A DNA stretch of 64,000 nucleotides from contig CAWFLK010000021.1 of assembly GCA_963816635.1 (NCBI GenBank), positions 154,443 through 218,442 on the forward strand, given 5' to 3'. The notes under the pieces are model-generated. The model saw only the letters and a program-made list of their open reading frames with translations, had not been told where the DNA came from and made no database searches. Every line of letters begins with the position of its first letter. Positions within the stretch are counted from its first letter, which is position 1. The translations under genes were made by a program, and so were the position numbers. The DNA is from Ilumatobacteraceae bacterium. GTDB taxonomy: Bacteria; Actinomycetota; Acidimicrobiia; Acidimicrobiales; Ilumatobacteraceae. Shown here piece by piece: positions 14,997 through 62,800 of the stretch.

Positions 14997-15000
14997 CCCG

Positions 15001-15912
15001 CGGCCGACGCCGCGGGCGCCGGCCGCGGCCCGCCCCGGCCGCGTCGCCCGCCACCTCGACACCGCGTCGCCCGAAGCGCTGTTCGCGCTCTCGGCGATCG
15101 CCCAGTACACGGGCACGTCGATCGCCGCGCTCCTCTTCGACGAGGTCGCCCCGCAGACCGTCGCCTGGCTGCGCGTCACCGGCGCGGCGATCGTGCTGCT
15201 GTTGGTGTCCCGCCACCCGTTCCGCGGCTGGACCCGCAGTCAGTTCGGCGCGGCTGCCCTGTTCGGCACGATCACCGCCCTGATGAACACGTGCTTCTAC
15301 ATGGCGCTCGCCCGCACCGATCTCGGCACGAGCGTCGCCATCGAGTTCATCGGCCCGATCATCGTCGCCGCGGCGATGACGCGCACCGCCCGCAACGCCT
15401 TCGCCCTCGGTCTCGCCGCCATCGGCGTGCTCGTGCTCGGCGGGCTGGAGGTCGGCGACAACACGATCGGCCTCCTGTGGCTGCTCGCCGCCTCGGCGAT
15501 GTGGGCGGCGTACATCGTGCTCGGCTCACGCGTCGCCCGCCTCGACCGCGGCGTGTCGGGCCTCGGCGTGGGCATGGCCGTCGGCGCCGTCGTGCTCCTG
15601 CCGATCGGCGCGCCCGGCAGCGCCCACGTGTTCACCACCCCGCGGCTGCTGATCGCCTGCCTCGTCGTCGGGGTGTGCTCCAACGCCATCGGCTACGGCA
15701 TCGACCAGCACGTCCTGCGTCGCATCCCGGTGCGCCGGTTCTCGCTGCTGCTCGCCCTGTTGCCGGTCACCGCCGTCGCCTTCGGCTGGGTCGTCCTCGG
15801 CCAGCGCCCGTCGGTCGTCGAGGCGATGGGGATCGGCCTCGTGCTCGCCGGCGTCGTCATCCAGGAGCGCGACGAGCTGCCACGCGACACGATGATGCTC
15901 GAGCCGTCCTGA
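15001..15912 (+). CDS. EamA/RarD-like DMT transporter (5' end uncertain)
   Basis: ORF 15193..15912 (GTG start) encodes the C-terminal TM helices. The same frame is open and TM-like upstream to about 15001 (ALFALSAIAQYTGTSIAALLFDEV...). No ATG, GTG or TTG start is present before 15193. Confidence 0.6.
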   Translation, partial: RPTPRAPAAARPGRVARHLDTASPEALFALSAIAQYTGTSIAALLFDEVAPQTVAWLRVTGAAIVLLLVSRHPFRGWTRSQFGAAALFGTITALMNTCFYMALARTDLGTSVAIEFIGPIIVAAAMTRTARNAFALGLAAIGVLVLGGLEVGDNTIGLLWLLAASAMWAAYIVLGSRVARLDRGVSGLGVGMAVGAVVLLPIGAPGSAHVFTTPRLLIACLVVGVCSNAIGYGIDQHVLRRIPVRRFSLLLALLPVTAVAFGWVVLGQRPSVVEAMGIGLVLAGVVIQERDELPRDTMMLEPS

Positions 15913-15932
15913 GCGTGTCGAGCACCTCGATG

Positions 15933-15975
15933 TGCCGACAGAATCGACTGCGAATCGGCGCGCAGTCGTCGGCAC
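15933..15975. terminator. nested inverted repeat between convergent genes
   Basis: GTGCCGAC...GTCGGCAC with an inner GACTGCG...CGCAGTC. It lies between the EamA stop (15912) and the iolG stop (16003). Confidence 0.3.
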
Positions 15976-16002
15976 TTCGGCGCCTGTCGGTCCCCTGCCG
16001 AC

Positions 16003-17006
16003 CTACGCGGGGACGGCCGGGCGACCGGTGCGCCGGGACTCCTCGGCGGCGATCGCCACCGACAGCGCCGCCCGCCCGTCGGCCCCCGTCACCGGCGCCG
16101 GACCCCCGGCCGCCACCGCCTCGACGAACGCCAGCCACTGGTCGCGGTAGCTCACCTCGTAGCGGTCGAGGAAGAACGCGCCGATCGGCGGCCGGTGCGA
16201 CCCGCTGGCGTCGTGGCGCGTCGTGGAGTGCACCGGCGGGTTGTCGGAGGCCGCCATGCCGCCGCTGCCGAACGCCTCGACGCGCTGGTCGTAGCCGTAC
16301 ACCGCCTGCCGGCTGTTGTCGATCACCGTCAGGCACCCCGAGTCGTGACGCAGCGTGACGATCGCCGTGTCGATGTCGCCGGCGGCGCCGATCGCCGGGT
16401 CGACGCGCACGGCGCCGACCGCCTGCACCTCGACGACCTCGCTGCCGGCCACGTAGCGGGCCATGTCGAAGTCGTGGATCGTCATGTCCTTGAACAACCC
16501 GCCCGAGCGGACCAGGTAGGCGACCGGCGGCGGGGCCGGGTCGCGGCTGGTGATCTTCACGAGGTGCAACTCGCCGAGCTCGCCGCTCGCCGCCGCCGCC
16601 TGCACGGCGCGGTGGGCCGGGTCGAAGCGCCGGTTGAAGCCGACGTGCAGCAGGGTGCCGGACGCCTCGACCGCGGCGAGCGCGGCGTCGACCTCGGCGA
16701 GGTCGAGCGACACCGGCTTCTCGCAGAACGCCGGCAGCCCGGCCGCGGCGACGCGGGCGATCAGCTCGGCGTGGGTGTCGGTGCTGGTGCAGATCGCCAC
16801 CGCGTCGACGTCGCCGGAGAGTGCCTCGTCGACCGACGCTGCCGCCGGGACGCCGAACGGGACACCGAGGGCCGACGCCGCGCTGGGGACGACGTCGAAC
16901 ACGGTGGCCAGCGACGCACCGGGGATGCGGCGGGCGAGGAGCTCGGCGTGCAACCGCCCGATCCGCCCGCACCCGAGAACCGCCACCCGCACCGGCCGTG
17001 TCACAC
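16003..17006 (-). CDS. iolG: inositol 2-dehydrogenase (Gfo/Idh/MocA family)
   Basis: VRVAVLGCGRIGRLHAELL is the N-terminal Rossmann fold, followed by FCEKP and the GFNRRFDP motif. The GTG start at 17006 overlaps the iolD stop (GTGA). Confidence 0.8.
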
Positions 17007-18861
17007 CCCCTTGCGCTGGTCGGCCTTGGCCTCGTCGAGGGCGGCCCGCGCCGCCCGGATCGACGGCCGATCGGACACCTCGGGCACGCCGACCTCCCAC
17101 CACGCGCCGCCCTCGGTCCACGCATGCGGGTCGACGTCGATGACGATGACCGCGGTGCGATCCGCCGCCCGCGCCCACTCGACCGCATCGGCGAGCTCGG
17201 CGATGTCGGCGACGCGGCGAACGGCGCAACCCATCGAGGCGGCGTGAGCGGCGAAGTCGACCGGCGCCCACTCCCCCGCGACCCGCACGTCGGCGAACAG
17301 GTTGTTGAACGACGCCCCGCCCTGGTTGACCTGCAGCCGGTCGATGACGGCGAAGCCGCCGTTGTCGCACAGGATCACGATCATCTTGTGCCCGGACAGC
17401 ACCGACGAGTACAGGTCGCTGTTCATCATCAGGTACGAGCCGTCGCCGACGAACACGAACGTCTCACCGTCGGGGGCCAGCTGCGAACGGGCCATCGCCG
17501 CTCCCCACCCGCCGGAGATCTCGTAGCCCATGCACGAGAACCCGTACTCGCAGTCGAACGTCGCCACCCCGCGCGACCGCCACCCGGCGTTCACCTCGCC
17601 GGGGAAGCCGCCCGACGCCGTCAGCGCGTAGTCGTGCCCGCTGGCCGCGGCGTTGACGGCGGCCACGACCTGGGCGTAGGTCACCGCGCCGTCGTGCTGC
17701 GGTGCGCCGATGCGGTCGAGGTACTCCCAGAGCGTGGCCACCTCCGGCGCGACCCGCGCCGTCCACGCCGCCGGCGCCCGCCAGTCGGCGAGGGCCGCGT
17801 CGAGCTCGACGATCGTCTCGCGGGCATCGCCGACCACCGCCACGGCGCGGTGCTTGCCGGCGTCGAAGCGGGCGACGTTGACACCGATGATCCGCACCGA
17901 GTCGTTGCGGAACACCGACCACGACCCGGTGGCGAAGTCGGCCAGGCGGGTGCCCACCGCCACCACGACGTCGGCCTCGGCGGCGAGACGGTTGGCGCCC
18001 TCGGCGCCGATCACACCGATCGGGCCGGCGTAGCACGGGTGGTCGGCGGCGACCGTGGACTTGCCGGCGACCGTCTCGACGATCGGGATGCCGTGGCGCT
18101 CGGCGAACGCCGCCACCTCGGCCTCGGCGAGGGAGTAGTGGGCGCCGCCGCCGACGACCATCAGCGGCCGCTCGGCGGCGCGCAGCGACGTCGATGGCGT
18201 CGGCCACCTGGCCGCGATCGGGCCGCGGTCGGGCGATGGTGTGCACCGTCTCGTCGAAGAACACGGTCGGGAAGTCGAACGCCTCGGCCTGCACGTCCTG
18301 GGGCAGGGCGATGAACGCCGGCCCGCAGTCCGCCGGGTCGAGCAGCGTCGACACCGCCAGTGGCAACGACGCCAGCACCTGCTCGGGCCGGGTGATGCGG
18401 TCCCAGTAGCGCACGACGGCGCGGAACGCGTCGTTGGCCGTCGTCGAGGGGGCACCGAAGTGCTCGACCTGCTGCAGCACGGGGTCGGGCAGACGGCTCT
18501 GGAACGTGTCGCCGGACAGCATCAGCACCGGCAGGCGGTTGGCCATCGCCACGCCGGCGGCGGTGACCATGTTCAGCGCGCCGGGGCCGATCGACGTGGT
18601 GGCCACCATGAACTGGCGGCGGCGCATCGCCTTGGCGTAGGCGACGGCGGCCAGCGCCATCCCCTGCTCGTTCTGGCCGCGCCACGTCGGCAGGGCGTCA
18701 CCGGCGGCGTGCAACGCCGGACCGAGGCACGTGACGTTGCCGTGGCCGAAGATGGCGAACACGCCGGGCACCAGCGGCGCCTCGACGCCGTCGATCACGG
18801 TTCGTTGGGCGACGAGGTAGCGCACGACGGCGTCGGCGGTGGTGAGGCGGACGGTCTTCAC
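17003..18861 (-). CDS. iolD: 3D-(3,5/4)-trihydroxycyclohexane-1,2-dione acylhydrolase (TPP-dependent), apparent frameshift near 18190
   Basis: KTVRLTTADAVVRYLVAQ ... FGHGNVTCLG ... WRGQNEQGMALAAVAYAKA ... LPQDVQAEAFDFP is collinear with B. subtilis IolD. The protein continues in ORF 17001..18455 (LMVVGGGAHYS ... GDGSYLMMNSDLY, the TPP motif). The two halves are in different frames. Confidence 0.85.
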
Positions 18862-20043
18862 GCGGCGGCCCCCTCGGCGATGTCGCTCCACCGGCGTCCA
18901 CGAGCGCGTCTCCCACGAGGTGAGCAGGGCGGCCTGCACGCGGGCGTAGGCGAGGGCGGCCCCGAAGCCGGGGTCGAACGGCCGACCCTCGGCGACGGCG
19001 GTGAGGAAGTGGTGGTCTTCGATCGTCACCAGGTCCTCGAAACCGATCGGGTTGGCTCGGCCCGGGACGAACGCGCCGTGGTCGCCGAAGCGTTCGCCGC
19101 CGAACACCGTGGTGTAGCCGGCCAGCGGGTCATCGGCCGCGGTGACGTGCACCTGCAGCTCGTTCATCCGCTCGAAGTTCCACGACAGCGAGCCGAGCGT
19201 GCCGTGCACGTCGAAGGCGTTCTGGCTCTCGGGCCCGACCATCGTGCGCGACGACTCGAACGTCCCGATCGCCCCGCCGGCGAAGCGGACGATGGCGGCG
19301 GCGTAGTCCTCGTTGGTGACGGCGCCGCTCGGACCACCGGCGGCGCCGCGGTCGTAGTGGGTGCCGCCGGGCGCCGGCAGCGGCCGCTCGGTGATGAACG
19401 TGGCACCGACACCGACGACCTCGGTGATGTCGCCGACGAGGAAGTGGGCGAGGTCGACGCTGTGGCTGAGCAGGTCGCTCGTGACGCCGTAGCCGCCCTC
19501 GTCGACCAGGTACCGCCAACTCAGCGCCCCGAGCGGGTCGTTGCCGTAGCAGGACAGGAACCGCCCGCGGTAGTTGGTGATGGTGCCCAGCCGGCCGTCG
19601 GCGATGAGCGAACGGGCGCACTGCACGAGCGGCGCCCAGCGGTAGTTGTAGCCAACGCCGGTGGTGACGTGGCGGGCGGCGCGCTCGGCGGCGGCGATCT
19701 GGGCCGGCGTGCCGCCGACCGGCTTCTCGCAGAACACCGCCTTGCCGGCGGCGGCGGCGGCCGACGAGATCTCGACGTGCAGCATGTTGGGCGCGGTCAC
19801 CACCACCACGTCGACGGCCGGGTCGTCGACGACGCGCCGCCAGTCGTCGGTGGCCGTGCCGAACCCGAAGTCGGCGACGGCCGACTCGCGCCGCTGCGGC
19901 ACGGCGTCGGCGCACACCACGAGCTCGGGATCGGCCGCACGGTCGGGGAACAACGCGGGGATGCGACGGTAGCTGCGGCTGTGGGCCTGGCCCATCCAAC
20001 CGAGCCCGACGACCCCGATCCCGATCGTTCGGCGCCCGGTCAT
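18858..20043 (-). CDS. Gfo/Idh/MocA-family oxidoreductase (inositol/inosose dehydrogenase paralog)
   Basis: MTGRRTIGIGVVGLGWMGQAHSRSY ... FCEKPVGGTPAQ. It is about 395 aa. The listed ORF does not terminate before iolD. The adjacent frame ends in TGA overlapping the iolD GTG, so a C-terminal frameshift is possible. Confidence 0.7.
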
Positions 20044-20935
20044 CGGGGGCCGGCCGCCGTCGTCATGCGGGCAGCGCGGGTCGACCGGCATCGTCGCCCA
20101 GGTGTCGCGCACCCAGTGGTGGGCCGGGTCGTCGCAGAACGCCATCGAGCGCTCCTCGCCGGGGCCGGCCATCACGTTGAGGTAGTACAGCGGGTAGCCG
20201 GGCGCGGCCACGCACGGCCCGTGGTAGCCGCGGGGGATCACGAACACGTCGCCGTCGGTCACGGCGATGTCGATCTCGACCGGCTCCCATTCGGCCGGAT
20301 CGTCGCCCCGCGTGTACGTGCGGTGCATGGCGAAACCCTCCGGCGCGTAGTCGGTGCCGGAGGTCCGCCCGACGCGGAAGTAGTAGATCTCCTCGTTGTT
20401 CGCCGGGCACTCGGGGCTGTCGTCGTGCTTGTGCGGCGGGTAGCTCGACCAGTTGCCGTCGGGCGTGAGCACCTCGACGGAGATCAGCTTGTCGGCGCCG
20501 TCGAACGCCTCCGGCGACATGAAGTTGTTCACCTGGCGGGTCGACGGACCGGCACCGCGCAGCTCGACGCGCACGTCGCCGGCGGCCACGTAGGCCGGGT
20601 CGAAGCGCCGCTGCGCCCGGGCCGACGCCAGCGCCAGCACCGCACCGTCTCGGCTGGCCAGGCGCACCTCGGCGTCGATCGGCAGGTAGCACCAGTCGGT
20701 GACCCGGGCGAACACCGACGACCGCCCGACGAGGTCGAAGTGCCGCCCCTCGACGTCGACCGTGCTCGCCGCCCCGGCGAGCGGGCACGACGGCCAACTC
20801 CTCCGAGCCGGTGGCCAGCTCGAGCTCGGCGCCGGCGGCCAGCGAGACGATCCGCAGCCCGCAGTAGGTCCATCCGACCTGTTCCGGCGTGACCGAGTGC
20901 ACCGGCCCCAGGTGCCACGGATGGGTGGCAGCCAT
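20040..20935 (-). CDS. iolB: 5-deoxy-glucuronate isomerase, apparent frameshift near 20785
   Basis: MAATHPWHLGPVHSVTPEQVGWTYCGLRIVSLAAG... lies in one frame and ...VFARVTDWCYLPID ... NWSSYPPHKHD ... YYLNVMAGP ... DPAHHW in another. Both are collinear with IolB. One extra C at GTGCCCGCTCGCC separates the frames. Confidence 0.8.
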
Positions 20936-22793
20936 CAGGGCGTCGCGCCCCGCCTCGACACCGCCGTCCGCACGATGTCGGCGGCGCGCGCCACGGCGCC
21001 CTCCACGTCGCCGTCGGCCGGGTAGAGCAACGACCGGCCGACCACGAGCCCGCGCACCGACGGCATCGCCAGCGCCCGCTCCCACGATGCGAACGATGCC
21101 TCGGGGTCGGGCCCGGGGGCGCCGCCGAGGATCAGCAGCGGCTGGGTGGTCATCGCCGCGACCTCGTCGACGTTCGCCGTCGCCTGGATCTTGAGCCACG
21201 TGTACGCCGACGAGTGCGCCGAGCGCGGCGCACACGCCGACGGCCTTCAAGAGGGCGTCGGGATCGTCGTCCCACACCGCCTTGCCCGACGCGTCCTTGG
21301 TGTACGGGATCGGCTCGACCATGGCCAGCATGCGCCGGTCGTTGAGCTCGCCCACCGCGGCGGCGCACGCGGCGAGGGTCGGCACGGTGCCGGCGTCGCT
21401 CGGGTCGATCCGCAGCAGCATCTTGCCGGCGTCGAGGCCGGTGGCGACGAGGTGGTCGGCGTCGTAGGCGGTGAACCGGTCGTCCAGCTCCCATGCCGCG
21501 CCGGCGAGGCCGCCGCGGTTCATCGTCCCCACCGCCACCCGCTCGTCGAGGGCGCCGAGCAGCACGAGGTCCTCGAGGATGTCGGCGCTCGCCAGCACCC
21601 CGTCGACGCGCGGGTTGGCGAGGGCCAGCAACAGACGGTCGAGCATCGTGCGGCGGTCGATCATCGCCCGCGGCTGGCCGCCGACACCGATCATCGCCCG
21701 CGCCGTGTGGTCGGCGGCGACGATGAACAGATGGCCGTCGGGCGCCACGGTCGACCGGCGCGGCCGCCGCGCCAACGCCTCGGCGATCGTGGCCGGCTGG
21801 CGGACGCGGGCGTCGATCAGGCCCTGGTACTGCTCGTCGGTGAGCGTCGGTCACGAACGTCGGTGTCCTCATCAAGCCGAGCACCTCGGCATCGGTCGGC
21901 ATGGCGTCCGCGCACAGTAGACGGCCGGCCACGATCGCTCCAGCCGCGTTGGCGTACTCGACGGTGCGCTGCGGCTCCCACCCGGCGAGCAGCCCGTGCA
22001 CGAGCGCCCCGCCGAATGCGTCACCGGCGCCGAGGCCGCACACCACCTCCACCCGGCGGGCGGCGACGGTGCTGCGGCCGTCGGGGGTGGCGACGAGCAC
22101 CCCGGCGGCGCCGAGCTTGACGATCGCCACCTCCGCGCCACGCGCCAGCAGCTCGTCCGCAGCCGCGTCGGGGTCGTCGGTGCCCACGGCGACCCGGCAT
22201 TCGGCCCGGTTGCCGACGGCCACGGTTGCCGCCCCGACCGCCGCCCCGATGACCCGAGCCGCGGTCGCCTCGTCCGGCCAGAGCGGGGCGCGGTAGTCGA
22301 GGTCGAGCACGGTGTGACGCCGCCGGGCGCGCGTGGCGAGCGCCGTCGTGACCGCCGTGCGTGCCGGCTCCTCCGCCATCGCCGACCCGGCGACCCACAG
22401 CACCGGGACCTCCGTGAGCGTGACGTCGTCGACCTCGCCCACCGCGAGCTGCATGTCCGGCGCGTGCGGCTGGCGGTAGAACAGCAGCTCCGGATCCTCC
22501 GGCGGCGTCATCGCGGCGAACGCCAGCGGCGTGCGCAGGACCGGGTCACGACCAACGAACGAGGTGTCGACGCCGAACGCGGTCAGCTTGGCGACGACGT
22601 AGTCGCCGAACGGGTCGGCGCCCACCTTGGTCCACACCGCGCTGGGGTGGCCGAGCCGCGCCGCCGCCACGGCCACGTTGGTCGCCGTGCCGCCGATCGA
22701 CTTCTCGAAGCGCTGCGGATCGGTGAAGGCGGCGCCGGGTGCGTCGGCGTAGAGGTCGACCGAGATCCTTCCGACCGTCAGTAGCTGGAGCAT
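20933..22793 (-). CDS. iolC: 5-dehydro-2-deoxygluconokinase fused to a DUF2090 domain (putative 5-dehydro-2-deoxyphosphogluconate aldolase), with at least two apparent frameshifts
   Basis: The N-terminus is PfkB kinase (MLQLLTVGRISVDLYAD ... GAGDAFGGALVHGLLAG). The protein then switches frame at ...TFVTDA|LTDEQYQGLIDARVRQP into the DUF2090 region (HLFIVAADHTARAMIGV ... MLAMVEPIPYTKD). The C-terminus is in a third frame (RGLVVGRSLLYPADGDVEGAV). The stop overlaps the iolB ATG (TGATG). Confidence 0.7.
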
Positions 22794-22816: not shown

Positions 22817-23664
22817 CTAGGTCACGTCTTCGGGGCGGGCGACCGATTCGATCTCGTGCGCCAGCGCCTCCAACTCCGCCCCGCCGGCCATCAGCTGGAT
22901 CAACTCTTCGCGGCTGATCTCGCTCTTGGCGTAGTTGCCGAGGCTCTGGCCGCGCTTCAGGATCAGGAAGCGCTCACCGACCGGGTAGGCGTGGTGCGGG
23001 TTGTGGGTGATGAAGACCACGCCGAGTCCGCGGTCGCGAGCGGCGACGATGTACCGCAGCACGACGCCCGACTGGCGCACACCGAGCGCCGCCGTCGGCT
23101 CGTCGAGGATCAGCACCTTGGCGCCGAAGTAGACGGCGCGGGCGATGGCGACGCACTGGCGCTCGCCGCCCGACAAGCGTGCCCACCGGCTGGTCGGGGT
23201 CGCGCACGTCGATGCCCATCTTGGCCATCTCCTCGACGGCGACGCGCTTGGCCTTCGGGATGTCGATCGCGCCGAGGGCCGCGGGTGGGCTCGGAGCCGA
23301 GGAAGAAGTTGCGCCAGATCGACATCAGCGGCGCCATCGCCAGGTCCTGGTAGACGGTCGCGATGCCGGCGGCCTTGGCGTCGCGCGGGGAGTGGAAGTG
23401 GACGTCGCGGCCCTCCATGAGGAAGTTGCCGCTGTCGTGCGGGTGCACCCCGGCCAGGATCTTGATGAACGTCGACTTGCCGGCGCCGTTGTCGCCGAGC
23501 ACGCACGTGACCTCGTTGGCGTGCACGCTGGTCGTGATGTTCTGCAGGGCGAGCACGTTGCCGAACGACTTCGACACGCGCTGCAGTTCGATCAGGGCGT
23601 GGCCACTCGCCTCGAACGTGTCGCGTCCCGCCGGCTGGCGTTCTCCGGCCTCGATCAGGGTCAT
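22817..23664 (-). CDS. sugar ABC transporter ATP-binding protein (single NBD), two apparent frameshifts
   Basis: Walker A ([16 protein letters not shown]) lies in ORF 23110..23688. The Q-loop and signature region ([24 protein letters not shown]) lie in the frame of ORF 22974..23228. Walker B and the H-loop ([10 protein letters not shown] ... FITHNP) lie in ORF 22817..24547. Confidence 0.75.
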
Positions 23665-24777
23665 GTCGGTGCTCCCTTCGACGGCCACGGCGCGGCGTGC
23701 CCGGCGGCGCCGGTGGCCGGGCCGGTCGCGACGCGGTGCGCGCCCAGCGCCGGATCGCCTCGTTGGAGAACGCGGCGACCAGCAGGATCACGCCGAGGAA
23801 CAGGTAGTACAGGTTGTTGTCCCAGCCGGCGAGGGGGATGCCGCTCTGGGTCATGCCGAGGATGAGGCAGCCGAGGGCGGCGCCGACCACCGATCCGAAG
23901 CCGCCGGTGAGCAGGCAGCCGCCGAGCACGGCGGCGATGATGAAGTAGAACTCCTGGCCGACGCCCTCGATCACGTTGGAGCGGCTGGTCTGGAAGAGCA
24001 CCACCATGCCGTGCACCCAGCCGCACACGGCGACGGTGATGAACAGCCCGATCTTGGTGGCGTTGGCCGGCACGCCGACCATCCGCGCCGCCTCCTTGTT
24101 GCCGCCGACGGCGAAGATCCAGTTGCCCACCTTGCTGCGCGACAGCACCCACGCACCGATGATCGTCATGACGACGAACCACAGGATCGCCACGCTGAAC
24201 CCGGCCCGTCCGATGTGGAACATGTTCGCGGCGAACACCTTGCGGCCGAACTCGTAGCCCGGCGCGTCCTCGATGCCGGTGACCTGGGTCTGGCCGGTGA
24301 CCCGCTGGGTCAGCCACAGGTTGAACCCGCGCAGCGTGAAGAACGTGCCCAGCGTGATGATGAAGCTGGGCAGCCCCGAGCGCACGACCATGAACCCGTT
24401 GAGGAAGCCGATCCCCATGGCGATGATCAGCGACAGCACCAGCGAGACGATCACGTTGAACCCGCTGTGCACGGAGAACAGCGCGCAGAACATCCCGGTC
24501 GTGCCGACCATCACGCCGGTCGAGAGGTCGAACTCGCCACCGATCATCAGCAGGGCGACTCCGAGCGCGCTGAGCCCGTACAGCGCCGACGTCTCGACGT
24601 AGGTCGAGGTGCCGAGCCAGCGACAGCCACACCGTCGCGCGCCTGGCTGGCGAACAGCAGCCAGACGACGATGGCGCCGGCGAGCGCCCCGAACTCGGGG
24701 CGGATGAGCAGCTTGCGCGTCAGCGACGTGCGGGCCAGCCGCTCGTCGCTGGAGGGGGTGGCGGTCGCGGTGGTCAT
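23665..24777 (-). CDS. sugar ABC transporter permease, apparent frameshifts
   Basis: The N-terminus [10 protein letters not shown] ... [20 protein letters not shown] is in ORF 24547..24777. The main body ([13 protein letters not shown] ... [17 protein letters not shown] ...) is in a second frame. Confidence 0.65.
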
Positions 24778-24866
24778 CGGAACCTCGCCTGCTCAGGCGG
24801 CGGCTGCCGGGGCGACCTCGCGGTCGCCGCCGGCGGCCATCCGTCGTGTCGGTGATGGGCGTGTCG

Positions 24867-49398: not shown

Positions 49399-49415
49399 GC
49401 GACACGCTCCGAACG

Positions 49416-52023: not shown

Positions 52024-53762
<1,739 letters not shown>

Positions 53763-54038
53763 CTCGCCGGCGAGGTAGGTGACGAAGAACTTCTGACGGT
53801 CCCGGTCGCGGAGCCGGTCGCGCGAACGGCGGTCTCACGCCGCGGTGGTCCAGCCCGAGGGCCATCGTCTGCATCTCGTCGCTCCTTGTCCCGGCGCGCC
53901 CGTTGCGCGACGACGATGCGAACGTAGAGACGGTTGGTGTCGGCACTGTCTCGGGGATGTGAACGGCGCGTTTCCAAACCTCGGCGAGCGGCCCTGACCA
54001 GGCGCGGCCCCGAGCGCCAGCACGTACGCTCCCGGCGC

Positions 54039-54747
54039 ATGGTTGCGCACGCGATCACGCACCTCGTGGCGATCGCCGGCGCCCGACGCGACCACGTACC
54101 CGAACTGGTCGTCATGCTCGGCGTCAGCCACCTGCGGGTGGTAGCGGTGAGCATCGGGCGCCACCTGGTGCCCACGCTCGACCGCCATCGTCCCGACGCC
54201 GTCGTGATCGACCACACCGGTGGCCACTTCGATGTCGGTCGGGTGTGTCGTGACCTCCACGAGTCGATCGACGCCCTGGTCGTCGTGGTCGGCACTCCCG
54301 AGGACGTGGCGAGTGACGAGTGGGTCGCCGACGTGCTGAAGTCCGGCGCCCACGACGTGGTGGACCCGACGATGTCGGTACGCGTGCTGCGCGCCCGTCT
54401 GCGCGCCGCCCTGCGCAGCGCCGGGCCGCGGGCGCGGCGGATCGAGTGCATCGCCCTCGGTGACGTCGACATCGACGTGGCGGCACGGGCCGTGCGGGCG
54501 GCGGGGACACCGGTCGGCCTGCCGCCGCGGCAGTTCGACCTGCTGGTGGCGCTCGCCCGCAACCCGAACGTCGTGGTGTCCCACGGCGAGCTGCTGGAGG
54601 CTGTGTGGCGGTTGCCACCCGATGCGGGATCGCGTCCGTGTGCGGGTGGCGGCGAGCGGGCTGCGCCGTTTGCTCGGGCGGGCCCCGCGCCGGCCCCGGG
54701 TCGAGGCGGTCGCCGGGATCGGGTACCGACTGAGCGTCCCGGCCTAG
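54039..54747 (+). CDS. orphan OmpR/PhoB-type winged-helix regulator with atypical receiver-like N-terminal domain (GlnR-like), apparent frameshift near 54640
   Basis: The C-terminal ...GLPPRQFDLLVALARNPNVVVSHGELLEAVW and (next frame) RVRVAASGLRRLLGR ... GIGYRLSVPA form a trans_reg_C-like wing. There is no adjacent kinase. The gene is divergent from amtB. The GlnR assignment is an inference from the genomic context. Confidence 0.5.
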
Positions 54748-55562
54748 GGCAGGCGCACGGAATCACCGTCGAGCGTCACCAGACGGTCGGCCACGAGCCC
54801 GGCGACGATCCGCGGCTCGAACGACGCCCGCGGGGCGGGCCCGCGCGGAGCGTCGCCAGGACCCGGCCACGCGCCTGGCGGTCGCTCCCCTCGAAGCGGC
54901 CCTGCGCCGTGCTCACGCCGGCCGACCCGTGCGCCGGGTCGGGCAGGGCGTTGCCGCCCAGGCGCCACCGACACCCGGCTCCGACCGGGCAGGCGTCGCA
55001 CCGCGGCGCCGGCCGGCACACCGTGGCGCCGAGGTCCATCAGCGTCTGGTTCCACGCCCAGCCGGCACCGGCGGGCACGAGCCGATCGGCGGCGTCCTGG
55101 GCGTCCGCCGCGGTGAGCCGTCGCCCAACGCTGCGGGCGAGCACGCGGGCGATGTTGGTGTCGACCACCGCGACGTCGCGCTCGTAGGCGAACGCCAGCA
55201 CGGCGCGGGCGGTGTACGGACCGATGCCGGGGAGGGCGACGAGCGCGGCCAGATCGTCGGGCACGCGGCCGCCGTGGCGTTCGATCATCACGGACGCCGC
55301 GTCGTGGAGGTTGCGGGCGCGGCAGCGGGTAGCCGAGGTCGTGCCAGACCCTGAGCACGTCACCGAGAGGGGCGCCGGCGCACGCCCCGGGCGACGGGTA
55401 CGCCGACAGGAAGGCCTCCCATTTCGGCACGACGCGCTCCACCTGCGTCTGCTGCAGCATCACCTCCGCGACCAGCACCCGCCACGGATCGCGGGTTCGG
55501 CGCCACGGCAGGTCGCGCAGCCGCGGCACGCCCCAGGCGAGGACGGCGGCGGGATCGATCAC
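54744..55562 (-). CDS. HhH-GPD DNA glycosylase with 4Fe-4S cluster (MutY / endonuclease III-like), two apparent frameshifts
   Basis: PWRRTRDPWRVLVAEVMLQQTQVERV ... is in one frame. LPGIGPYTARAVLAFAYERDVAVVDTNIARV ... CRPAPRCDACPV..C (the HhH-GPD and Cys4 cluster loop) is in ORF 54776..55363. Confidence 0.75.
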   Translation of the reverse strand: MIDPAAVLAWGVPRLRDLPWRRTRDPWRVLVAEVMLQQTQVERVVPKWEAFLSAYPSPGACAGAPLGDVLRVWHDLGYPLPRPQPPRRGVRDDRTPRRPRARRSGRARRPPRHRSVHRPRRAGVRLRARRRGGRHQHRPRARPQRWATAHRGGRPGRRRSARARRCRLGVEPDADGPRRHGVPAGAAVRRLPGRSRVSVAPGRQRPARPGARVGRREHGAGPLRGERPPGAWPGPGDAPRGPAPRASFEPRIVAGLVADRLVTLDGDSVRLP

Positions 55563-55576
55563 GATCGTCGGTCGTC

Positions 55577-56089
55577 TACTCCCACGCCGCGTCGACGTCG
55601 TAGGGGCGGGGCCGGCCCGGGGCGGCGTCGCGCTTCCACACCATCACCCGGCGACGGAAGTAGCACACCTCCTCGCCGTCCTGGTTGAAGCCCTTCGACT
55701 CCACCGTCACCACGCCGCGGTCGGGACGAGACGCCGACTCCTCTGACGTCGAGCACGCGCGTCTCGGCGTGGATGGTGTCGCCGTGGAACGTCGGCGACT
55801 TGTGCTGCAACGTCTCCACCTCGAGGTTGGCGATCGCCGATCCGCTCACGTCGGGCACGCTCATCCCGAGCACGACGGAGTAGACGAGGTTGCCGACCAC
55901 CACGTTGCGCCCCTGCACGCTTTGCGCCGCGAACCAGTCGTTGGTGTGCAGCGGGTGATGGTTCATCGTGATCATGCAGAACAGGTGGTCGTCGTACTCG
56001 GTGATCGTCTTGCCCGGCCAGTGCCGGTAGACGTCGCCGACGACGAAGTCCTCGCAGGTATCGGCCGAACGGCCGCTCGTGCACGGTCA
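55577..56089 (-). CDS. MaoC-like (R)-specific enoyl-CoA hydratase, hot-dog fold, two apparent frameshifts
   Basis: MTVHERPFGRY... then (frame 2) ITMNHHPLHTNDWFAAQSVQGRNVVVGNLVYSVVLGMSV ... TFHGDTIHAETRVLDV, then the C-terminus in a third frame. Confidence 0.65.
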
Positions 56090-56124
56090 TCCTCGAACCC
56101 TAGGTCTGTGCCCGCGAGCTCGCC

Positions 56125-57456
56125 TCACTGTCGCCGGCGAGCGGCCCGCGGCGGGTCATCCTGGCCGTCGCCGTTGGACGAGGTGGCGTCGGATCCGTCG
56201 GTCGGCGCGGCGTCGTCGCCCGCCGCGGCGCCGCGTCCGCTGGTCTGCTCGCTCGGCGGCTTCGGCCACGCCCGCATGAGGAAGTCGACCTTCGACTCGC
56301 CGTCCTCGCGGTAGCCCTGGGCGAGGACGCGCAGCCGCGTCAGGCGATCGCGCCGCTCGATGCTCCACGGGCCGAAGCGCAGCGATGTGTAGAAGCAGGC
56401 GCCGACGAGGATCGGCAGGAACACCTGCATCAGTCGGTACGAGGCGACGCCGAGCGTGGCGTTCGAGCGCGTCAGGCCGAAGCCGACGAGCAACGGGATG
56501 TAGACGGCGTCGACGATGCCGAGGCCGCTCGGCGTGATCGGGATCACCGCCGTCACGTTCGCCAGGCCGAACGTGACGAGCAGCGCCACCGGCTCGAGCG
56601 GATGACCCTCGTGCGGAACGCCTCCAACATCACCCAGAGCGACGCCGCGTCGAGCAGCCAGTTCACCGTCGCCCACAGCACCACCTTCTTCAGCATCTGC
56701 TTGTCGTCGATCAGCTCCTCCATGCGCACGCCGACCTGGCGCAGCGCGGCGGCACACCCCGCCGCCGTCGAAGTGGAGCTTGACGGCGAACCACTGCACG
56801 ATGCGCTCGGCGCGCCCCTGCCCGTGCACCAGCCCGGCGACCAGGGCCACGGCGAAGAGCATCACGACGACACCGGCGAGGGCGCCGATCGTGTAGGCCG
56901 CGTTCACCCCGTAGATCGGGATCGACACCATCAGCGCGAACCAGAAGATCAGGTTGAGCACCACCGCCGAGCCGATGCCGGCGGTGCCGAGGGCGAAGCC
57001 GGCGTCGGCCCCTTTGATCCCCGACAGCGTCATCAGGCGGTACCCGAGCGCCGAGCCGGCGGCGCTGCCGCCGGGCACCACGTTCGACAGCGCCTTGGTG
57101 CTCATCTGGATGCGGAACATGCGCATCCGCGAGATCGTCTGGCCCGCCTCGCCCAGCGCCGAGCGGGTGAGCAGCGAGTAGGCCCACCACGCCCCGACCT
57201 GGAGTGCGAGCCCGCTGACGAGCAGGAGCGGGTTCACGGTGACGAGGTCGCCGGCGGCCTTGCGGTACCCGGGGATCAGCGGCAGGACGAAGAAGTAGAG
57301 GCCGAGCGCCAACAGGAGCGTCTTGACGCCGAGGCGCACCGGCTTGAACGGCTTGCGGTTGATCGGCCGCGACGGGTCGCGCACGATCGGCGGCAGCTCG
57401 CCGGGCTCGAAGCGCGGGCTCGGGTCGAGGTACTGCCGCGCCGGCTCCGAGCTCAC
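56125..57456 (-). CDS. lysylphosphatidylglycerol-synthase-TM-like (YbhN/UPF0104) integral membrane protein, apparent internal frameshifts
   Basis: The protein is polytopic with a cytoplasmic Arg/Pro-rich N-terminus. The central roughly 60 codons of the listed ORF are an Arg/Gly-rich off-frame segment. Confidence 0.5.
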   Translation of the reverse strand: MSSEPARQYLDPSPRFEPGELPPIVRDPSRPINRKPFKPVRLGVKTLLLALGLYFFVLPLIPGYRKAAGDLVTVNPLLLVSGLALQVGAWWAYSLLTRSALGEAGQTISRMRMFRIQMSTKALSNVVPGGSAAGSALGYRLMTLSGIKGADAGFALGTAGIGSAVVLNLIFWFALMVSIPIYGVNAAYTIGALAGVVVMLFAVALVAGLVHGQGRAERIVQWFAVKLHFDGGGVCRRAAPGRRAHGGADRRQADAEEGGAVGDGELAARRGVALGDVGGVPHEGHPLEPVALLVTFGLANVTAVIPITPSGLGIVDAVYIPLLVGFGLTRSNATLGVASYRLMQVFLPILVGACFYTSLRFGPWSIERRDRLTRLRVLAQGYREDGESKVDFLMRAWPKPPSEQTSGRGAAAGDDAAPTDGSDATSSNGDGQDDPPRAARRRQ

Positions 57457-57517
57457 CCTTCCTTGCTACACGATCCGGCCGAACCGAGCGAGCCACGGCC
57501 GGGCGGCGGAGGTGGGG

Positions 57518-58153
57518 TCAGGCGCGGTCGCGATCGAGCCACTTCGGGGCGGTCGGCGGCGCCGGGTCGCCGACGAGGCGCACGGCCTCGTCCACCGAGC
57601 CGGCCGTCTGCGCCATGGCGCGATGGGCCGGGCGCAGCAGCCCGGACTCGGCCGCCCGGTCGAGGAACGCGAACAGGTCGCGGTAGAGTCGCCGACGTCG
57701 AGGAACACCACCGGTACGGCCACGATGCCGAGCTGGTTCCACGTGAGCACCTCGAACGCCTCGTCGAGCGTGCCGAAGCCACCGGGGAGCACCACCACGG
57801 CGTCGGCCAGCTCGGTCATGCGCGCCTTGCGCTCGTGCATCGAGGCGACGACCTCGAGCGTGGTCGAGACGAGGGTGGGCGATCTCCGAGGCCACGAGTT
57901 GATCGGTGATCACGCCGGTGACCGAGCCGCCCGCCGCCAGGGCGGCGTCGGCGACCGCACCCATCAACCCGACGTGCCCGCCGCCGTACACGACCTCGTG
58001 GCCGGCGCCGGCGAGGGCCGTGCCGAGGGCGGTGGCGGCGGCCAGGAAGCGCTCGTCGTGCCCGGGGTTGGAGCCGCAGTAGACGGCGACGCGGGTCGGA
58101 TGGTCCGGCACGGCGGCGAACTGTACGCACGGCGGGCCAGTTCGCCGACGCAT
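57518..58153 (-). CDS. LOG-family cytokinin riboside 5'-monophosphate phosphoribohydrolase-like (TIGR00730) protein, two apparent frameshifts
   Basis: [16 protein letters not shown] ... [17 protein letters not shown] ... then in ORF 57466..57840 ...[27 protein letters not shown] (PGGxGTxxE motif). Confidence 0.65.
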
Positions 58154-58182: not shown

Positions 58183-60540
58183 TTGGCTCCGACATGCAGA
58201 CGCGGCACCCTGCGCCACCGCGTCCCGCCGCGCCGGAGCACCCGCAGCGTCCGTCGCCCCTCCAGCGGCGACCCCTCGAGCGCCGTCCGCCGGGCGCACC
58301 GCGGTCGGCCCCTCGCCGACGCGGCCGACGCCGAATGGTCCGCCGCGCCCTCGCCGGCCACGCCGCCACCGACTTCCGGCCCGACATCGAGGGCCTGCGC
58401 GGCGATCGCCGTGCTCGCCGTGGTGCTCTACCACGTCCGCCTACCGGGCGTGCGGGGCGGGTTCGTCGGCGTCGACGTGTTCTTCGTCGTGTCCGGCTTC
58501 CTGATCACGCGCCTGCTGCTCGCCGAGCTGGCGACGACGGGCACGGTCTCGCTGGCAGCGGTTCTGGGCCCGCCGGGCTCGCCGCATCCTGCCCGCCGCC
58601 ACGCTGACCGTGGTCGTCACCGTGGTGCTCGCGCAGCAGCGTGCTGGCACCGCTGCCGCTGCCGGCGCTCGCCGCCGACGCCATCGGCGCCGGCACGTTC
58701 ACCATCAACTTCGTGTTCGCCCACCGCCTCGGCGACTACTTCGGCGCCCAGCTCGGCGCCACCGACCCGTCGCCGCTGCTGCACTACTGGTCGCTGGCGG
58801 TCGAGGAGCAGTTCTACCTGTGCTGGCCGCGCTGCTCGTGCTGCTCACCCGCCGGCCGCGCGCAGTACCGCCGGCTGCTCGCCGTCACCGTGTCGCGTGC
58901 TCGCCGCGATCGGCTTCGTCGTCGGGATGTGGCTCACCGACCACCGCCCGTCGTGGGCGTTCTTCCTGCTGCCGGCGCGGATGGGCGAGCTGCTCGCCGG
59001 CGCCGCGCTGGCCGTCGCCGCCGGCGCGCGTGCTCCGGCTGGCCGCACCGTGGCGCGCCGCGCTCGGGTGGGCCGGCCTCGCCGGCATCGTGGTCGCCTG
59101 CTCGATGCTCGACGAGTCGGTGCCGTGGCCGGGGCGGGCCGTGCTGCTGCCGGTGCTCGCCACGATGGCCGTGATCGTGTCGGGCACGGCGCCGATGACC
59201 GTGCCGTGGGCACCCCTGGCGCGTCCTGCGGCGTCCCGTCGCTGCAGTGGCTCGGCCGCCACTCGTACGCCCTGTACCTCTGGCACTGGCCGGCTGCTCG
59301 TGCTGGCGCAAGCCGCGCTGGGGTCCGCTCACGTGGCCGGAACGGATCGTGCTGGTCGGCTGTCGCCGTGGCACTGTCGGCCGCGTCGGTGCGCCTCGTC
59401 GAGGACCCGGTGCGCCACTCCCGCTACGCTGTCGGCCCGCCCGGCGCGTCTCGCTGGCGCTCGGCGCGGCGCTGTGCGCGGTCACCGTCGGCGTCGGCGT
59501 GCAGACCTGCGCTCGTCGGTCGGCGCCCTCGACGGCGGTGTCACGGCGGCCGCGCCCGATCTCGCCGCTGGCGCGGCCGTCGTCGCCGCGCGGCACCGAC
59601 CACCACGGTCGCCGCCACCACCGACCACGATCGGCAGTGCCACCACGATCGCCACGACCGGGGCGATCGGCCGACGACGCTGGCCACGCCCGACCCGCCG
59701 AGCGGTCGACTCGCCGGCTCGTGGCGTCGACGCAACGGGCGCTGCAGTCGTCGTCGGGCCCGGCGGCGGTGCCGACCAACCTCGATCCGTCGCTCGCTGC
59801 CGCCCGCGACCGCTCGGCGCCGTACGACGACGGCTGCGTGAACGTCGGCGTCAACCCCCGCCTGCAGCCGTGCGAGTACGGCGTGACAGGACTCCGCCCG
59901 CACGATCCTGCTGTACGGCGACTCCCACGCCGTGCAGTGGTTCGAGCCGCTGCAGCAGATCGCCGCTCGCAGCGCGGCTATCGGCTCGTGGTCCTGATCA
60001 AGGGCGGGTGCCCGGTCGCCGCCGTCGACGTGCCGACGCCGAACCTGCACTTCACCTGCCCGCCGTACCGCGACCGGGCGATCGACTGGATCGCCGAGCA
60101 CCAGCCGGACCTCGTCGTGGTGGCGAACTCCTACACGCAGTACCCCGCCGACGCCGACGAGTGGGCCGCCGGCACCGACGAGACGATCGGGCGGCTCGCC
60201 GACGCGTCGACCGCACGTGGTGGTGATCGGCGACAACCCGGCGAGCACGGTCGACCCGCCGGCCTGCCTGTCCGGGCACCTCGACGACACCTCGGCCTGC
60301 GCCACGGCGCGCGACGACGCGATCCGGCCCGACCGGATCTCGGCCGAGGTCGCCGCGGCCCGCGCCCACGGGGTGCGCTTCGTCGACACCACCGACTGGT
60401 TCTGCACCGGCCACCACGTGTCCCAGCCGTCGTCGGCAACGTGCTCGGTGATGCGCGACGAGACGCACGTCACCGTCGCCATGGCCGAGCTGCTCGAGCC
60501 CCTCCTCGACGCCGCCCTGGCGCCGTCGTTGTCGTAGCGG
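58183..60540 (+). pseudogene. acyltransferase-3 family (OatA-like) membrane O-acyltransferase with C-terminal SGNH domain, many apparent frameshifts
   Basis: AAIAVLAVVLYHVRLPGVRGGFVGVDVFFVVSGFLITRLL is the AT3 N-terminus. ...LLYGDSHAVQWFEP... is the SGNH block I. ...VVVIGDNPASTVDPPACL ... ETHVTVAMAELL is the C-terminus. The pieces are scattered over at least five listed ORFs. Confidence 0.55.
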
Positions 60541-60581
60541 TCGGACCGCGCTGCGGCGGCGAACGCCTGCACACTGGGGCG

Positions 60582-61180
60582 ATGCCGGACCTCGACCCCA
60601 AGGCCACCTGCATCGCTACCTGCAGTCGTCGCGCGACGCGCTGCTGTGGAAGCTCGACGGGCTGTCGGAGTACGACGTCCGCCGGCCCCTGGTGCCGACC
60701 GGCACCAACCTGCTCGGGATCGTCAAGCACGTCGCGAGCGTCGAAGCCGGGTACTTCGGCGACACCTTCGGCCGCCCGTTCCCCGACCGTTGCCGTGGTT
60801 CGACGAGGACGCCGAGCCCAACGCCGACATGTCCGCCACGCCGGACGAGTCCCGTGAGGACATCGTCGGGCTGTACCACCGGGCCTGGGCCCACTCCGAC
60901 GCCACGATCGACGCCCTCGGCCTCGATGCCGCCGGGCGGGTGCCGTGGTGGCCCGAGGACGTGCGCGACGTGACGCTGCACCGCATCCTCGTGCACATGA
61001 CCACCGAGACCGCCCGTCACGCCGGGCAGGCCGACATCGTGCGCGAGCTGATCGACGGCACCGTCGGGCTTGCGCGTCGGCAACGACAACATGGCGCCGC
61101 TCGACGCCGACCGATGGCGCCAGTACCACGACCGGGTCGAGCAGGCCGCCCGTGCGGCCGGCGGGGTTACCCACGAGTAG
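60582..61180 (+). CDS. DinB/YfiT-like (DUF664) four-helix-bundle metal-binding protein, apparent frameshifts
   Basis: ...LLWKLDGLSEYDVRRPLVPTGTNLLGIVKHVASVEAGYFGDTFGRPFP ... WAHSDATIDAL ... LHRILVHMTTETARHAGQADIVRELIDG. Confidence 0.5.
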
Positions 61181-61190
61181 CTTCGACTCG

Positions 61191-62800
61191 ATGTCGCCGG
61201 CTCCCACCGACCTCGCCGCCGTCACCGCCCTCGTCGACGCCAGCGACGCGGCGATCGGTCGCGCCACGGCGCGACTCGCCGAGCTCGGCGGCCCCGACGC
61301 CGGTCAGTCCCTGGCCTACGACCTCGCCCACGCCGCGTCGGCCGCCACGATGGCCCGGGTGCTGCTGCGCGTACGGCGCCCGCTGGCGAGACCGAGGGCG
61401 AGATCGCCGCGGCGTTCGCCGCCGATTGCGCCCACGACCTGATCGCCCGCCGCACCGGGCGCGAGCACCTGCTGGGGTGACGACACCTTCACCGCGGCCG
61501 ATCGCGAGACCCTGGCCCGCCACCGTGACCCGGCCCGACTCGCCGCGCTCGCCGAGTCGCCCGGAGCCCGCCATCTCGACGACGACATGGAGATGGTGCA
61601 GGACACCTTCCGTGCCTTCGCCACCAACGTCGTGCGACCGCACGCCGAGCACGTGCACCGCACGAACGGCGACGTGCCCGAGGAGATCATCCGCGGCGTC
61701 GCCGATCTCGGCGCCTTCGGCCTGTCGGTGCCCTCGGCCTACGGCGGGTTCTCCGAGGGCGGCGACGACGAGTACCTGGCGATGGTCGTCGCCACCGAAG
61801 AGCTCAGCCGCGCCAGTCTCGGCATCGGCGGCTCGCTGATCACCCGGCCCGAGATCCTCACCCGCGCCCTCGTGAAGGGCGGCACGGAAGAGCAGAAGCA
61901 GCACTGGCTGCCCAAGCTGGCGTCGGCCGAGGCGATGGTGGCGGTGGCCGTCACCGAGCCGGACTTCGGCAGCGACGTCGCCGGCCTCACCGTCACGGCC
62001 ACGCCGGCGCCGGGTCCGGGCGGCGCCGCCGGGTGGGCGATCAACGGGGTGAAGACGTGGTGCACGTTCGCCGCCCGAGCCGATGTGCTGATGCTGCTCG
62101 CCCGCACCGACCCCGACCGCTCGAAGGCGCACCGTGGCCTGAGCCTGTTCGTCGTGCCCAAGCCCCAGGGTGACGGCCACGGGTTCGAGTTCACGCAGGA
62201 GGCCGTCGACGGCCGGATCGGGCGCATCTCGGGACGGCCCATCGACACGATCGGGTACCGCGGCATGCACAGCTACGAGGTGGCGCTGGAGGACTGGTGG
62301 GTGCCCGCCGACCACCTCATCGGCGGCGACGCCGGCCTCGGCCGCGGCTTCTACCTGCAGATGGAGGGCTTCGAGAACGGACGGCTGCAGACCGCGGCGC
62401 GCGCCGTCGGGGTGATGCAGGCGGCGTACGACGCGGCCCTCGACTACGCCCGCGAGCGCACGGTGTTCGGCGCCCGCGTCGTCGACTACGAGCTCACCCG
62501 CGCCAAGCTCGGACGGATGGTCGTGCTCGTGCAGGCCTCACGCCAGAGCGCCTACCACGTCGCCCGCCTGATGGCCGCCGGCGGCGGCGCCACCGAGGCG
62601 AGCATGGTCAAGGCGTACGCCTGCCGCGCCGCCGAGTGGGTGACCCGCGAGGCGATGCAGATCCACGGCGGCTTCGGCTACGCCGAGGAGTACCCCGCCA
62701 GTCGCCTGTTCGTCGACGCCCGCGTGCTGTCGATCTTCGAGGGCGCCGACGAGACGCTGTGCCTGCGCGTGATCGCGAAACGGCTCCTCGACCGCGCGAG
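61191..62800 (+). CDS. acyl-CoA dehydrogenase family protein with N-terminal extension, two or three apparent frameshifts
   Basis: An open frame from about 61474 to beyond 62800 (absent from the supplied ORF list) encodes MEMVQDTFRAFATNVVRPHAEHV ... AVTEPDFGSDVAGL ... GVKTWCTFAARADV ... QIHGGFGYAEEYPASRLFVDARVLSIFEGADE. These are ACAD signatures. The N-terminal roughly 90 codons are in other frames. Confidence 0.75.

Follow-up and report, generated by a model that had tools for sequence, protein, structure and literature searches.

The window analysed here is a stretch of 64,000 nucleotides (GC content 72%) from an Ilumatobacteraceae bacterium (contig CAWFLK010000021.1), in which many otherwise conserved genes are split by single-base frameshifts; the inositol catabolism genes, the leucyl aminopeptidase gene pepA, the methionine synthase gene metH and the glnD/amtB nitrogen-sensing locus are among them. 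We conclude with high confidence that these frameshifts are errors left uncorrected in the consensus of a long-read metagenome assembly, very probably Nanopore-only, from a soil Ilumatobacteraceae population. This conclusion is drawn because the same genes are intact in sister assemblies, each of which has its own, different error patches. The initial annotation had set an assembly artefact against gene decay, and the artefact is favoured by the private lesions, the intact sister copies, the low ratios of nonsynonymous to synonymous substitution rates (dN/dS) and a mutation spectrum rich in insertions. No evidence was found for the decay of the inositol and glnD/amtB loci, which had been considered in case the frameshifts were real, and GlnD and AmtB are full-length in the sister assembly L087.

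The reading frames were called without a reference, using a frame plot of the GC content at third codon positions (GC3) and a codon-usage Viterbi frame tracker, which was trained on the long open reading frames (ORFs) of the window and has explicit start, stop, overlap and frameshift transitions. Fragments were joined at the tracked junctions, and the repaired proteins were scanned against Pfam. The tracker sites in the 5' part are 7050, 13968, 18186, 20782, 21205, 21845, 23177, 23283, 24620 and 25209; further on they are 34304, 36145, four in pepA, 39577 and about 45 within 47.5–61.5 kb. The tracker calls at 12764, 14994, 20969, 23692, 23751, 52393 and 52461 were rejected as ordinary gene boundaries. 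The curated set consists of 62 sites; the site 62766, an artefact of the window end, is included in this number and in the statistics, and 61 is the better figure. The count is also a lower bound, as the comparison with L087 adds deletions at 35282–35687, 47701 and 47792. In most of the affected genes, the repaired protein shows a single Pfam match uninterrupted over the junctions. The frameshift sites listed in the initial annotation were recovered by both the GC3 plot and the tracker, and the genes named there as intact were confirmed to be intact.

The sites are distributed very unevenly. The numbers in successive 8-kb bins are 1, 1, 6, 2, 7, 1, 24 and 20 (chi-square 75.8, p = 1e-13), with an index of dispersion of 3.7 for 2-kb bins. 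Three stretches are clean of frameshifts (25.2–34.3, 39.6–47.5 and 61.5–64.0 kb). The uneven density claimed previously is therefore correct, with 44 of the 62 sites in the last 16 kb, but the density does not rise as a steady gradient: it is patchy, with clean stretches between the patches and a clean last 2.5 kb.

Five sister assemblies were compared with the window, each overlapping only a part of the locus. L004 was found by scanning species-representative genomes with the EF-G-like fragment of the 3' end. It is contig_29535 of the metagenome-assembled genome (MAG) MFD04944.bin.2.195 (Ilumatobacteraceae bacterium) from Microflora Danica (MFD), and shows 98% protein identity and 94–95% DNA identity to the window over 54.7–64 kb. 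The other four represent the same population in other samples and were obtained via exact-protein look-ups: L084 (ERZ25039556 contig_6635) spans 18.5–40.7 kb of the window, L087 (ERZ25039464 contig_73348) 33.9–54.9 kb, L088 (ERZ25039560 contig_20159) approximately 32.9–55.0 kb, and L093 (ERZ25039510 contig_6251) 52.3–64 kb and beyond. The synteny references L001–L003 and most of L005–L083 cover the 3' end only.

The tracker called 69 shifts in the window, 22 in L004 (21 kb), 74 in L084 (20.9 kb), 4 in L087 (20.5 kb), and 50 each in L088 and L093. When the shift positions are placed in window coordinates, there is almost no coincidence between assemblies. The pepA gene has 4 shifts in the window, 10 in L084, 0 in L087 and 6 in L088, and metH has 1, 16, 0 and 30 in the same order. 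In the window, L087 and L088, the fasciclin gene has 4, 0 and 1 shifts and glnD has 12, 1 and 2, respectively. For amtB the numbers are 6 in the window, 1 in L087, 6 in L088 and 8 in L093, those of L088 and L093 being private. On the 3' side, the numbers in the window, L093 and L004 are 9, 0 and 3 for the AT3-SGNH acyltransferase gene, 3, 3 and 0 for the acyl-CoA dehydrogenase (ACAD) gene, and 0, 0 and 2 for the EF-G-like gene. No tracker calls were obtained in at least one assembly for DUF952, the hypothetical gene at 35.3–36.3 kb, pepA, metH, the AbiEi/DUF559-like gene, fasciclin, the regulator, MaoC, AT3-SGNH and ACAD. The HhH-GPD, LPG_synthase_TM, LOG and MST/DinB genes have shifts in every assembly that overlaps them.

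In every assembly, the frameshift patches are also rich in extra private substitutions. The L088 metH, with its 30 shifts, has 104–115 private substitutions per kb where the window and L087 are near-identical. Patches of the same kind lie mid-contig in the relatives, and the last 2.5 kb of the window are clean; the contig end, which had been suggested as a cause, is thus not supported as the explanation. The clean 3' end (61479..64000) contains most of the ACAD gene and the EF-G-like gene, and its mismatch to L093 is 0.2–1.2%. Multi-kb patches were also observed in the relatives, for example at 3600–6750 of L088 (window 38–41 kb) and at 13300–19600 of L093, with approximately 10% private substitutions and one frameshift per approximately 100 nt. 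The L093 patch is a 6-kb stretch beyond the window end, and the flanks of both patches are near-identical to the other assemblies.

The mismatch to L087 is 0.2–1.2% over 38–49.4 kb, and the synonymous divergence of the flanking genes from L087 is only 0.01–0.04; thus, neutral decay in place cannot yield so many indels. In the DUF952 gene (34079..34430, minus strand), the DUF952 match is unbroken over a junction caused by one extra A at 34306. This A is absent in L087, L088 and L084, and the gene has 1 substitution in 114 codons against L087. The hypothetical gene at 35287..36301 (plus strand; 210 aa in L087), compared with L087, L088 and L084, carries one additional C (36140) and, within 35282–35687, five deletions private to the window. 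The pepA gene (M17 leucyl aminopeptidase; 36334..37883, minus strand) has extra single bases at 36613, 36702 and 37071 and an extra 2-nt CG at approximately 37398, and the Peptidase_M17 profile (2–310 of 310) is continuous over three junctions. The L087 pepA is intact (514 aa). The window differs from it by 29 synonymous and 9 nonsynonymous differences (dN/dS 0.11) together with the four frameshifts, and the pepA patch differs by 3.4% from L087, whereas the adjoining DNA differs by 0.2–0.4%.

The metH gene (37969..41504, plus strand) has one deletion at 39575 (C4 to C3), and its two fragments match Pterin_bind profile positions 1–196 and 200–244. The intact L087 metH (1196 aa) shows 10 substitutions in 1177 codons against the window, with a dN/dS of 0.08. 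The following 7.9 kb (39578..47490) are free of frameshifts. The AbiEi/DUF559-like gene (47035..47997, plus strand), the N-terminal part of which matches AbiEi_4, has shifts at approximately 47491, 47701 and 47792, and its deletions occur in neither L087 nor L088. The fasciclin-domain gene (48710..49290, plus strand) lacks one base at 48769 and has additional ones at 49085, 49155 and 49172; the Fasciclin profile (3–123 of 123) is continuous over three junctions. The L087 gene is intact (228 aa) with approximately 10 mismatches in 800 nt, yet the window has 4–5 frameshifts.

Similar results were obtained in the dense zone. The AT3-SGNH acyltransferase gene (58335..60537, plus strand) is the densest patch, with at least nine tracked shifts and 22 window-private 1-nt insertions. 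Acyl_transf_3 spans five of the junctions and SGNH spans three. The L093 gene is intact (726 aa), and the dN/dS between it and the window is 0.20. Downstream (60582..62801, plus strand), a mycothiol-S-transferase (MST)/DinB gene has shifts at 60615, 60788 and 61066, and an Mcd-like ACAD gene has a compensating pair at 61371 and 61478. The MST profile is matched over 5–149 of 149, the ACAD domains are matched, and the dN/dS of the ACAD/MST region is 0.17. The ACAD is intact in L004 (P0241, 97% identity). The 90%-identity cluster of this ACAD has members, encoded on various long contigs, of 211, 405, 516, 528, 534–536, 600 and 738 aa; this length spread is the same fragmentation seen at the protein level.

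The dN/dS check proposed in the initial annotation was thus performed and gave 0.08–0.20 in frameshifted genes against near-identical intact orthologues, which favours the artefact. The values against the noisy L004 and L084 are ambiguous because the errors of these assemblies inflate dN, and they were replaced by values against the cleaner L087 and L093. Stop counts in tblastn high-scoring segment pairs were also tried and found to be uninformative, since the GC content of 72% keeps out-of-frame stretches open and the pairs run through them.

A variant of the consensus-error reading is that most frameshifts are errors and a small minority is real. This is unlikely, and it concerns the permease site 24620 and perhaps the AbiEi/DUF559-like gene. 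The permease belongs to a sugar ABC transporter (22817..25842, minus strand) with sites in the ATPase (23177, 23283), the permease (24620) and the binding protein (25209). ABC_tran residues 409–560 (23177, 23283) and Peripla_BP_4 residues 38–282 (25209) are continuous through the junctions, and the extra A at 23175 is not present in L084. The same frame change at 24620 is common to the window and L084 (at approximately 6243), and the local sequences are the same except for two substitutions. It is located in the permease N-terminus between the first transmembrane segment and BPD_transp_2. This is the sole lesion plausibly shared, and it may be a real lesion, a systematic basecalling error specific to the sequence, or a natural start or overlap misread by the tracker. 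The site is covered by two assemblies only, both noisy there, and L084 is the only assembly overlapping the inositol and ABC genes. At three 1-nt sites within 47.1–47.2 kb, the window has the L088 state and not that of L087, which also speaks for a real minority.

The kind of changes was analysed over 58–60.5 kb, where they can be polarised by L093 and L004. Private to the window are 61 substitutions (13, 13 and 33 at the successive codon positions), 22 one-base insertions and 4 deletions, whereas 27 substitutions and 2 indels are private to L093. The excess of the window over a normal lineage is approximately 34 substitutions and 26 indels. In bacterial mutation spectra (e.g. E. coli mutation-accumulation lines), indels occur at approximately 0.1 of the substitution rate, deletions dominate, and most indels are produced by slippage at repeats. 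The spectrum of the window, in which indels are about as numerous as substitutions and there are 5 insertions per deletion, is the opposite of these spectra.

Most of the indels are 1-nt events (54 of 68 against L004; 165 of the 186 extra in L084). Shifts of the insertion type exceed those of the deletion type in the window by 47 to 15 (p = 6e-5), with a comparable bias in L004, L084 and L093. In 21 of the 28 frameshifting 1-nt insertions located against a relative, the inserted base is unlike both neighbours; the description of the lesions as lying usually in a G/C run was not borne out. Of all 1-nt extra bases, 24% in the window (20/82) and 18% in L084 (30/165) match a neighbour, against 52% for random insertion (p = 6e-7 and 4e-19, respectively). 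The only clear homopolymer deletions are 39575 and a C-run near 60788. At 60770–60795, one C is missing in each of the window (CCC to CC) and L004 (CCCC to CCC, at approximately 7781 of the L004 reverse complement); these are independent homopolymer under-calls in C-runs 4 nt apart, mimicking a shared frameshift. An association with homopolymers, the classical Nanopore signature, was not found, and homopolymer indels as the mechanism, proposed by the initial annotation, were rejected by these context statistics: the errors are mostly non-homopolymer single-base insertions. Across the window, L084, L004, L088 and L093, the fraction of insertions equal to a neighbour ranges from 18 to 36% against the 52% expected; this avoidance, together with an approximately threefold excess of insertions over deletions, sets the errors apart from the homopolymer errors on which discussions of Nanopore data usually centre.

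The unusual context of the insertions could be expected if the consensus of a strain mixture had kept both alleles of a single-nucleotide polymorphism (SNP) in series. The inserted bases usually unlike both neighbours, and the coincidence of the error patches with locally divergent segments, are in line with this model. Insertions of this origin would be expected to be scarce between codon positions 1 and 2, but they are spread evenly over the codon-phase boundaries (49, 41 and 37 in L084; 14, 13 and 11 in the window against L004). According to this uniformity the model was rejected, and we regard it as quite improbable.

Genuine pseudogenisation of the inositol operon, the glnD/amtB locus and their neighbours is very improbable. 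In its favour, dN/dS against the noisy relatives is 0.25–0.36 in frameshift-dense genes and 0–0.14 in intact genes, dN/dS of glnD, amtB and the regulator against L087 is 0.28–0.46, and no clearly essential gene is among those heavily hit, lysS, accA and dapD being intact. The values of 0.28–0.46 come from 49.4–54.9 kb, where private substitutions reach approximately 150 per kb and noise inflates dN. Against pseudogenisation, the lesions are private, and the genes are intact in L087 or L093 at 95–99.8% identity. The divergence is too small for 4–5 indels in the 580-nt fasciclin gene or for the 22 AT3-SGNH insertions. The ratio of private indels to substitutions is approximately 0.4 (approximately 0.8 for the excess over L093), against a natural ratio of approximately 0.1. 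Insertions exceed deletions by 3–5 to 1, contrary to the known bacterial deletion bias, and approximately 75% of them are not duplications of a neighbour and thus not slippage products. Nonsense codons number 0–1: the L087 and L093 reading frames meet no in-frame stop except one in amtB, and GC3 in the dense zone is 0.92–0.97. There are no large deletions, and no insertion sequence (IS) element was noticed, although no systematic IS search was made. In addition, pseudogenisation would require that each sister assembly had independently suffered decay of different genes.

The consensus-error reading is also supported by the origin of the assemblies. The contig ena:ERZ25039533:contig_29535 is identical to the L004 contig, and this identity ties the ERZ series to the Microflora Danica long-read project. 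From the accession range and the Flye-style contig names, we infer that L084, L087, L088 and L093 come from the same project. The MFD long-read assemblies were produced by Flye (--meta --nano-hq) and one Medaka round without short-read polishing, and the authors report Nanopore-associated errors in lower-coverage MAGs (PMC12313526). According to the same group, R10.4 data give near-finished genomes only at approximately 40-fold coverage, and lower-depth bins require Illumina polishing (PMC9262707). The window would likewise be an error-prone, very probably Nanopore-only long-read product without accurate polishing.

The dense zone begins near a change of haplotype. The window is at least 99% identical to L087 until approximately 49.4 kb, and then abruptly becomes 8–16% different from L087 and L088, which stay near-identical to each other through the switched segment. 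The divergent segment (49300–54913) spans glnD, glnB, amtB and the regulator. The in-frame pieces of the window GlnD are 80–93% identical to the JGI fragment P0200, and 59–61% identical to the GlnD of L087, L088 and L004. The top matches of the repaired AmtB are Ilumatobacteraceae/Acidimicrobiia metagenome proteins with approximately 82% identity. Searches with the repaired AmtB and GlnD gave no near-identical orthologue for 49.4–54.9 kb; the best GlnD matches were 54–61% full-length, and P0200 was 86% locally. These results indicate that the 49.4–54.9 kb segment is a real, different haplotype, and the haplotype mosaic is either a true recombinant cassette or a chimera of the assembly path.

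The dense frameshift zone starts close to this haplotype switch, and a low-coverage region, as the initial annotation had supposed, is a plausible cause because it fits such a start near the haplotype departure. From approximately 49.4 kb, the contig would follow a rarer, divergent haplotype represented by few reads, and this would produce the uneven density. The backbone of the dense patches would rest on very few reads, and polishing would leave them near raw-read accuracy; the error over 58–60.5 kb may be estimated at approximately 2% (approximately Q16). Stretches with good coverage would have been polished clean. As another explanation of this segment, the divergent cassette may be a genuine recombinant import that is being lost with its downstream neighbours, some lesions then being real. 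We consider this very doubtful as well. Programmed ribosomal frameshifting, transcriptional slippage or other recoding, for which nothing speaks beyond the presence of +1 and -1 frame changes, has a negligible probability and is effectively refuted by the intact L087 and L093 orthologues. At least 62 sites are involved in unrelated genes, up to a dozen per gene, at positions not conserved among relatives and in non-repetitive, heterogeneous contexts with no common motif.

Several points weigh against the explanation by consensus errors. The sites 7050, 13968 and 18186 have no close relative for comparison. The 49.4–54.9 kb segment has no near-identical clean reference, and divergence and noise are not fully separable there. 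The platform of the window itself is deduced through its relatives, being directly established for L004 alone. An excess of non-homopolymer insertions is, moreover, unexpected from typical Nanopore raw-read errors. From the read-level support and the divergent 49.4–54.9 kb segment, a slight residual uncertainty remains.

The remaining genes of the dense zone show the same pattern. The glnD gene (49291..51801, plus strand) has at least 12 frameshifts, and the GlnD_UR_UTase and HD matches span the junctions; the L087 GlnD is a full-length gene call of 806 aa with one tracker call. The next block (52024..53874, minus strand) contains an intact glnB and amtB with 5–6 frameshifts. The Ammonium_transp profile (1–399 of 399) is continuous over five junctions, and the L087 AmtB is a full-length gene call of 481 aa with one tracker call. 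Within 54039..58111 are the genes for an OmpR-type regulator (site 54600), an HhH-GPD glycosylase (55322), a MaoC hydratase (55726, 56054), an LPG_synthase_TM protein (56599, 56754) and a LOG protein (57689, 57877). The Trans_reg_C, HhH-GPD, MaoC, LPG_synthase_TM and Lysine_decarbox matches are continuous at every junction. The regulator and MaoC are intact in L093, and the inserted bases of this region are not present in L004. With respect to gene content, in L004 a spacing of 119 nt (L004 positions 19365–19484) separates glnD from the sequence that follows the regulator in the window, and the glnB–amtB–regulator block of approximately 3 kb is missing. The block (compared over window 51700–54737) is present in the window, L087, L088 and L093. 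The ammonium transporter cassette thus shows a presence/absence polymorphism within one species-level group.

On the 5' side, the lpdA-like flavoprotein gene (5934..7302, minus strand) has one frameshift at approximately 7050, and Pyr_redox_2 residues 4–322 span the junction at residue 84. The gene for an exported protein of unknown family (13278..14082, plus strand) has a possible frameshift at approximately 13968, suggested by codon statistics only; the Pfam scan of this protein gave no match. The inositol catabolism genes (17001..22793, minus strand) comprise iolD (site 18186), a GFO/IDH oxidoreductase gene, iolB (20782) and iolC with Cgl0159/DUF2090 (21205, 21845). The TPP_enzyme_M (18186), KduI (20782) and Cgl0159 (21205) matches are continuous through the junctions, and L084 has 15 private shifts in the same inositol genes. 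The ATGA and GTGA stop/start overlaps at 18860–18900 and 20030–20060 are off-frame relative to the upstream coding frame, so that additional 1-nt errors missed by the tracker are likely toward the 3' ends of iolB and of the oxidoreductase gene. It was also observed that iolB, the GFO/IDH oxidoreductase gene and iolD read as one stop-free ORF (17464–20715). An extra G in GGTGGAGC at approximately 18.89 kb is a candidate for such an undetected error.

Between the ABC transporter and DUF952, 9.1 kb (25210..34303) are free of tracker shifts and contain a 297-aa gene (26021–26914) and the MscS, MoeZ-like, flotillin and aquaporin genes. The MscS protein is identical in the window and L084. Two length differences from L084 were observed in this stretch. 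At 30800–30835, in the gap separating the MoeZ-like gene from the flotillin gene, the window has 33 nt that L084 lacks. The aquaporin gene (33276–34043; compared over 33013–34021 against L084 14617–14649) is missing from L084, where flotillin is directly followed by DUF952. The same aquaporin appears as a MIP gene at the start of L087, showing a small indel polymorphism among strains.

Gene-splitting indels in Nanopore-only genomes and metagenomes have been described together with IDEEL-type truncation tests (PMC9262707; PMC12313526; Kastor, PMC12007338; Homopolish, PMC8011154). As in those assemblies, single-base indels divide conserved genes between frames in a manner dependent on the assembly and not on the organism, and the errors are missing from better-supported assemblies of the same population; MAGs made by Flye and one Medaka round without short reads are of this type. 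Unlike in that literature, where homopolymer indels are stressed, approximately 75% of the insertions here are not beside an identical base, the ratio of insertions to deletions is approximately 3:1, and the errors are located in sharp-edged, kilobase-scale patches and not genome-wide. The frameshifts thus represent a known type of assembly artefact whose error signature is unusual. Effects of microdiversity on metagenome assembly have also been noted (PMC9262707). The fall of identity with L087 and L088 at approximately 49.4 kb, from at least 99% to approximately 80–85%, resembles haplotype switching or chimeric assembly-graph paths, and so does the lower consensus quality in the divergent segment.

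Pseudogenes of reductive genomes such as Mycobacterium leprae and Leifsonia xyli show shared ancestral lesions, dN/dS toward 1, a deletion bias, indels of widely varying size, nonsense codons and IS insertions. The window is similar to them in that many conserved genes are frameshifted yet recognisable. It differs in that shared lesions, dN/dS of approximately 1, the deletion bias and the other hallmarks of these pseudogenes are not seen.

Annotation of this DNA at face value would wrongly report the loss of inositol catabolism, methionine synthase, PepA and GlnD/AmtB nitrogen sensing in an uncultured soil member of the family. Nanopore-only soil MAGs of this population contain kilobase patches near raw-read accuracy, which tend to coincide with divergent segments. 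As the errors are mostly non-homopolymer insertions, checks focused on homopolymers would miss them. Before such MAGs are used for pseudogene counts, pangenome presence/absence analyses or dN/dS scans, they need polishing or a check against other assemblies.

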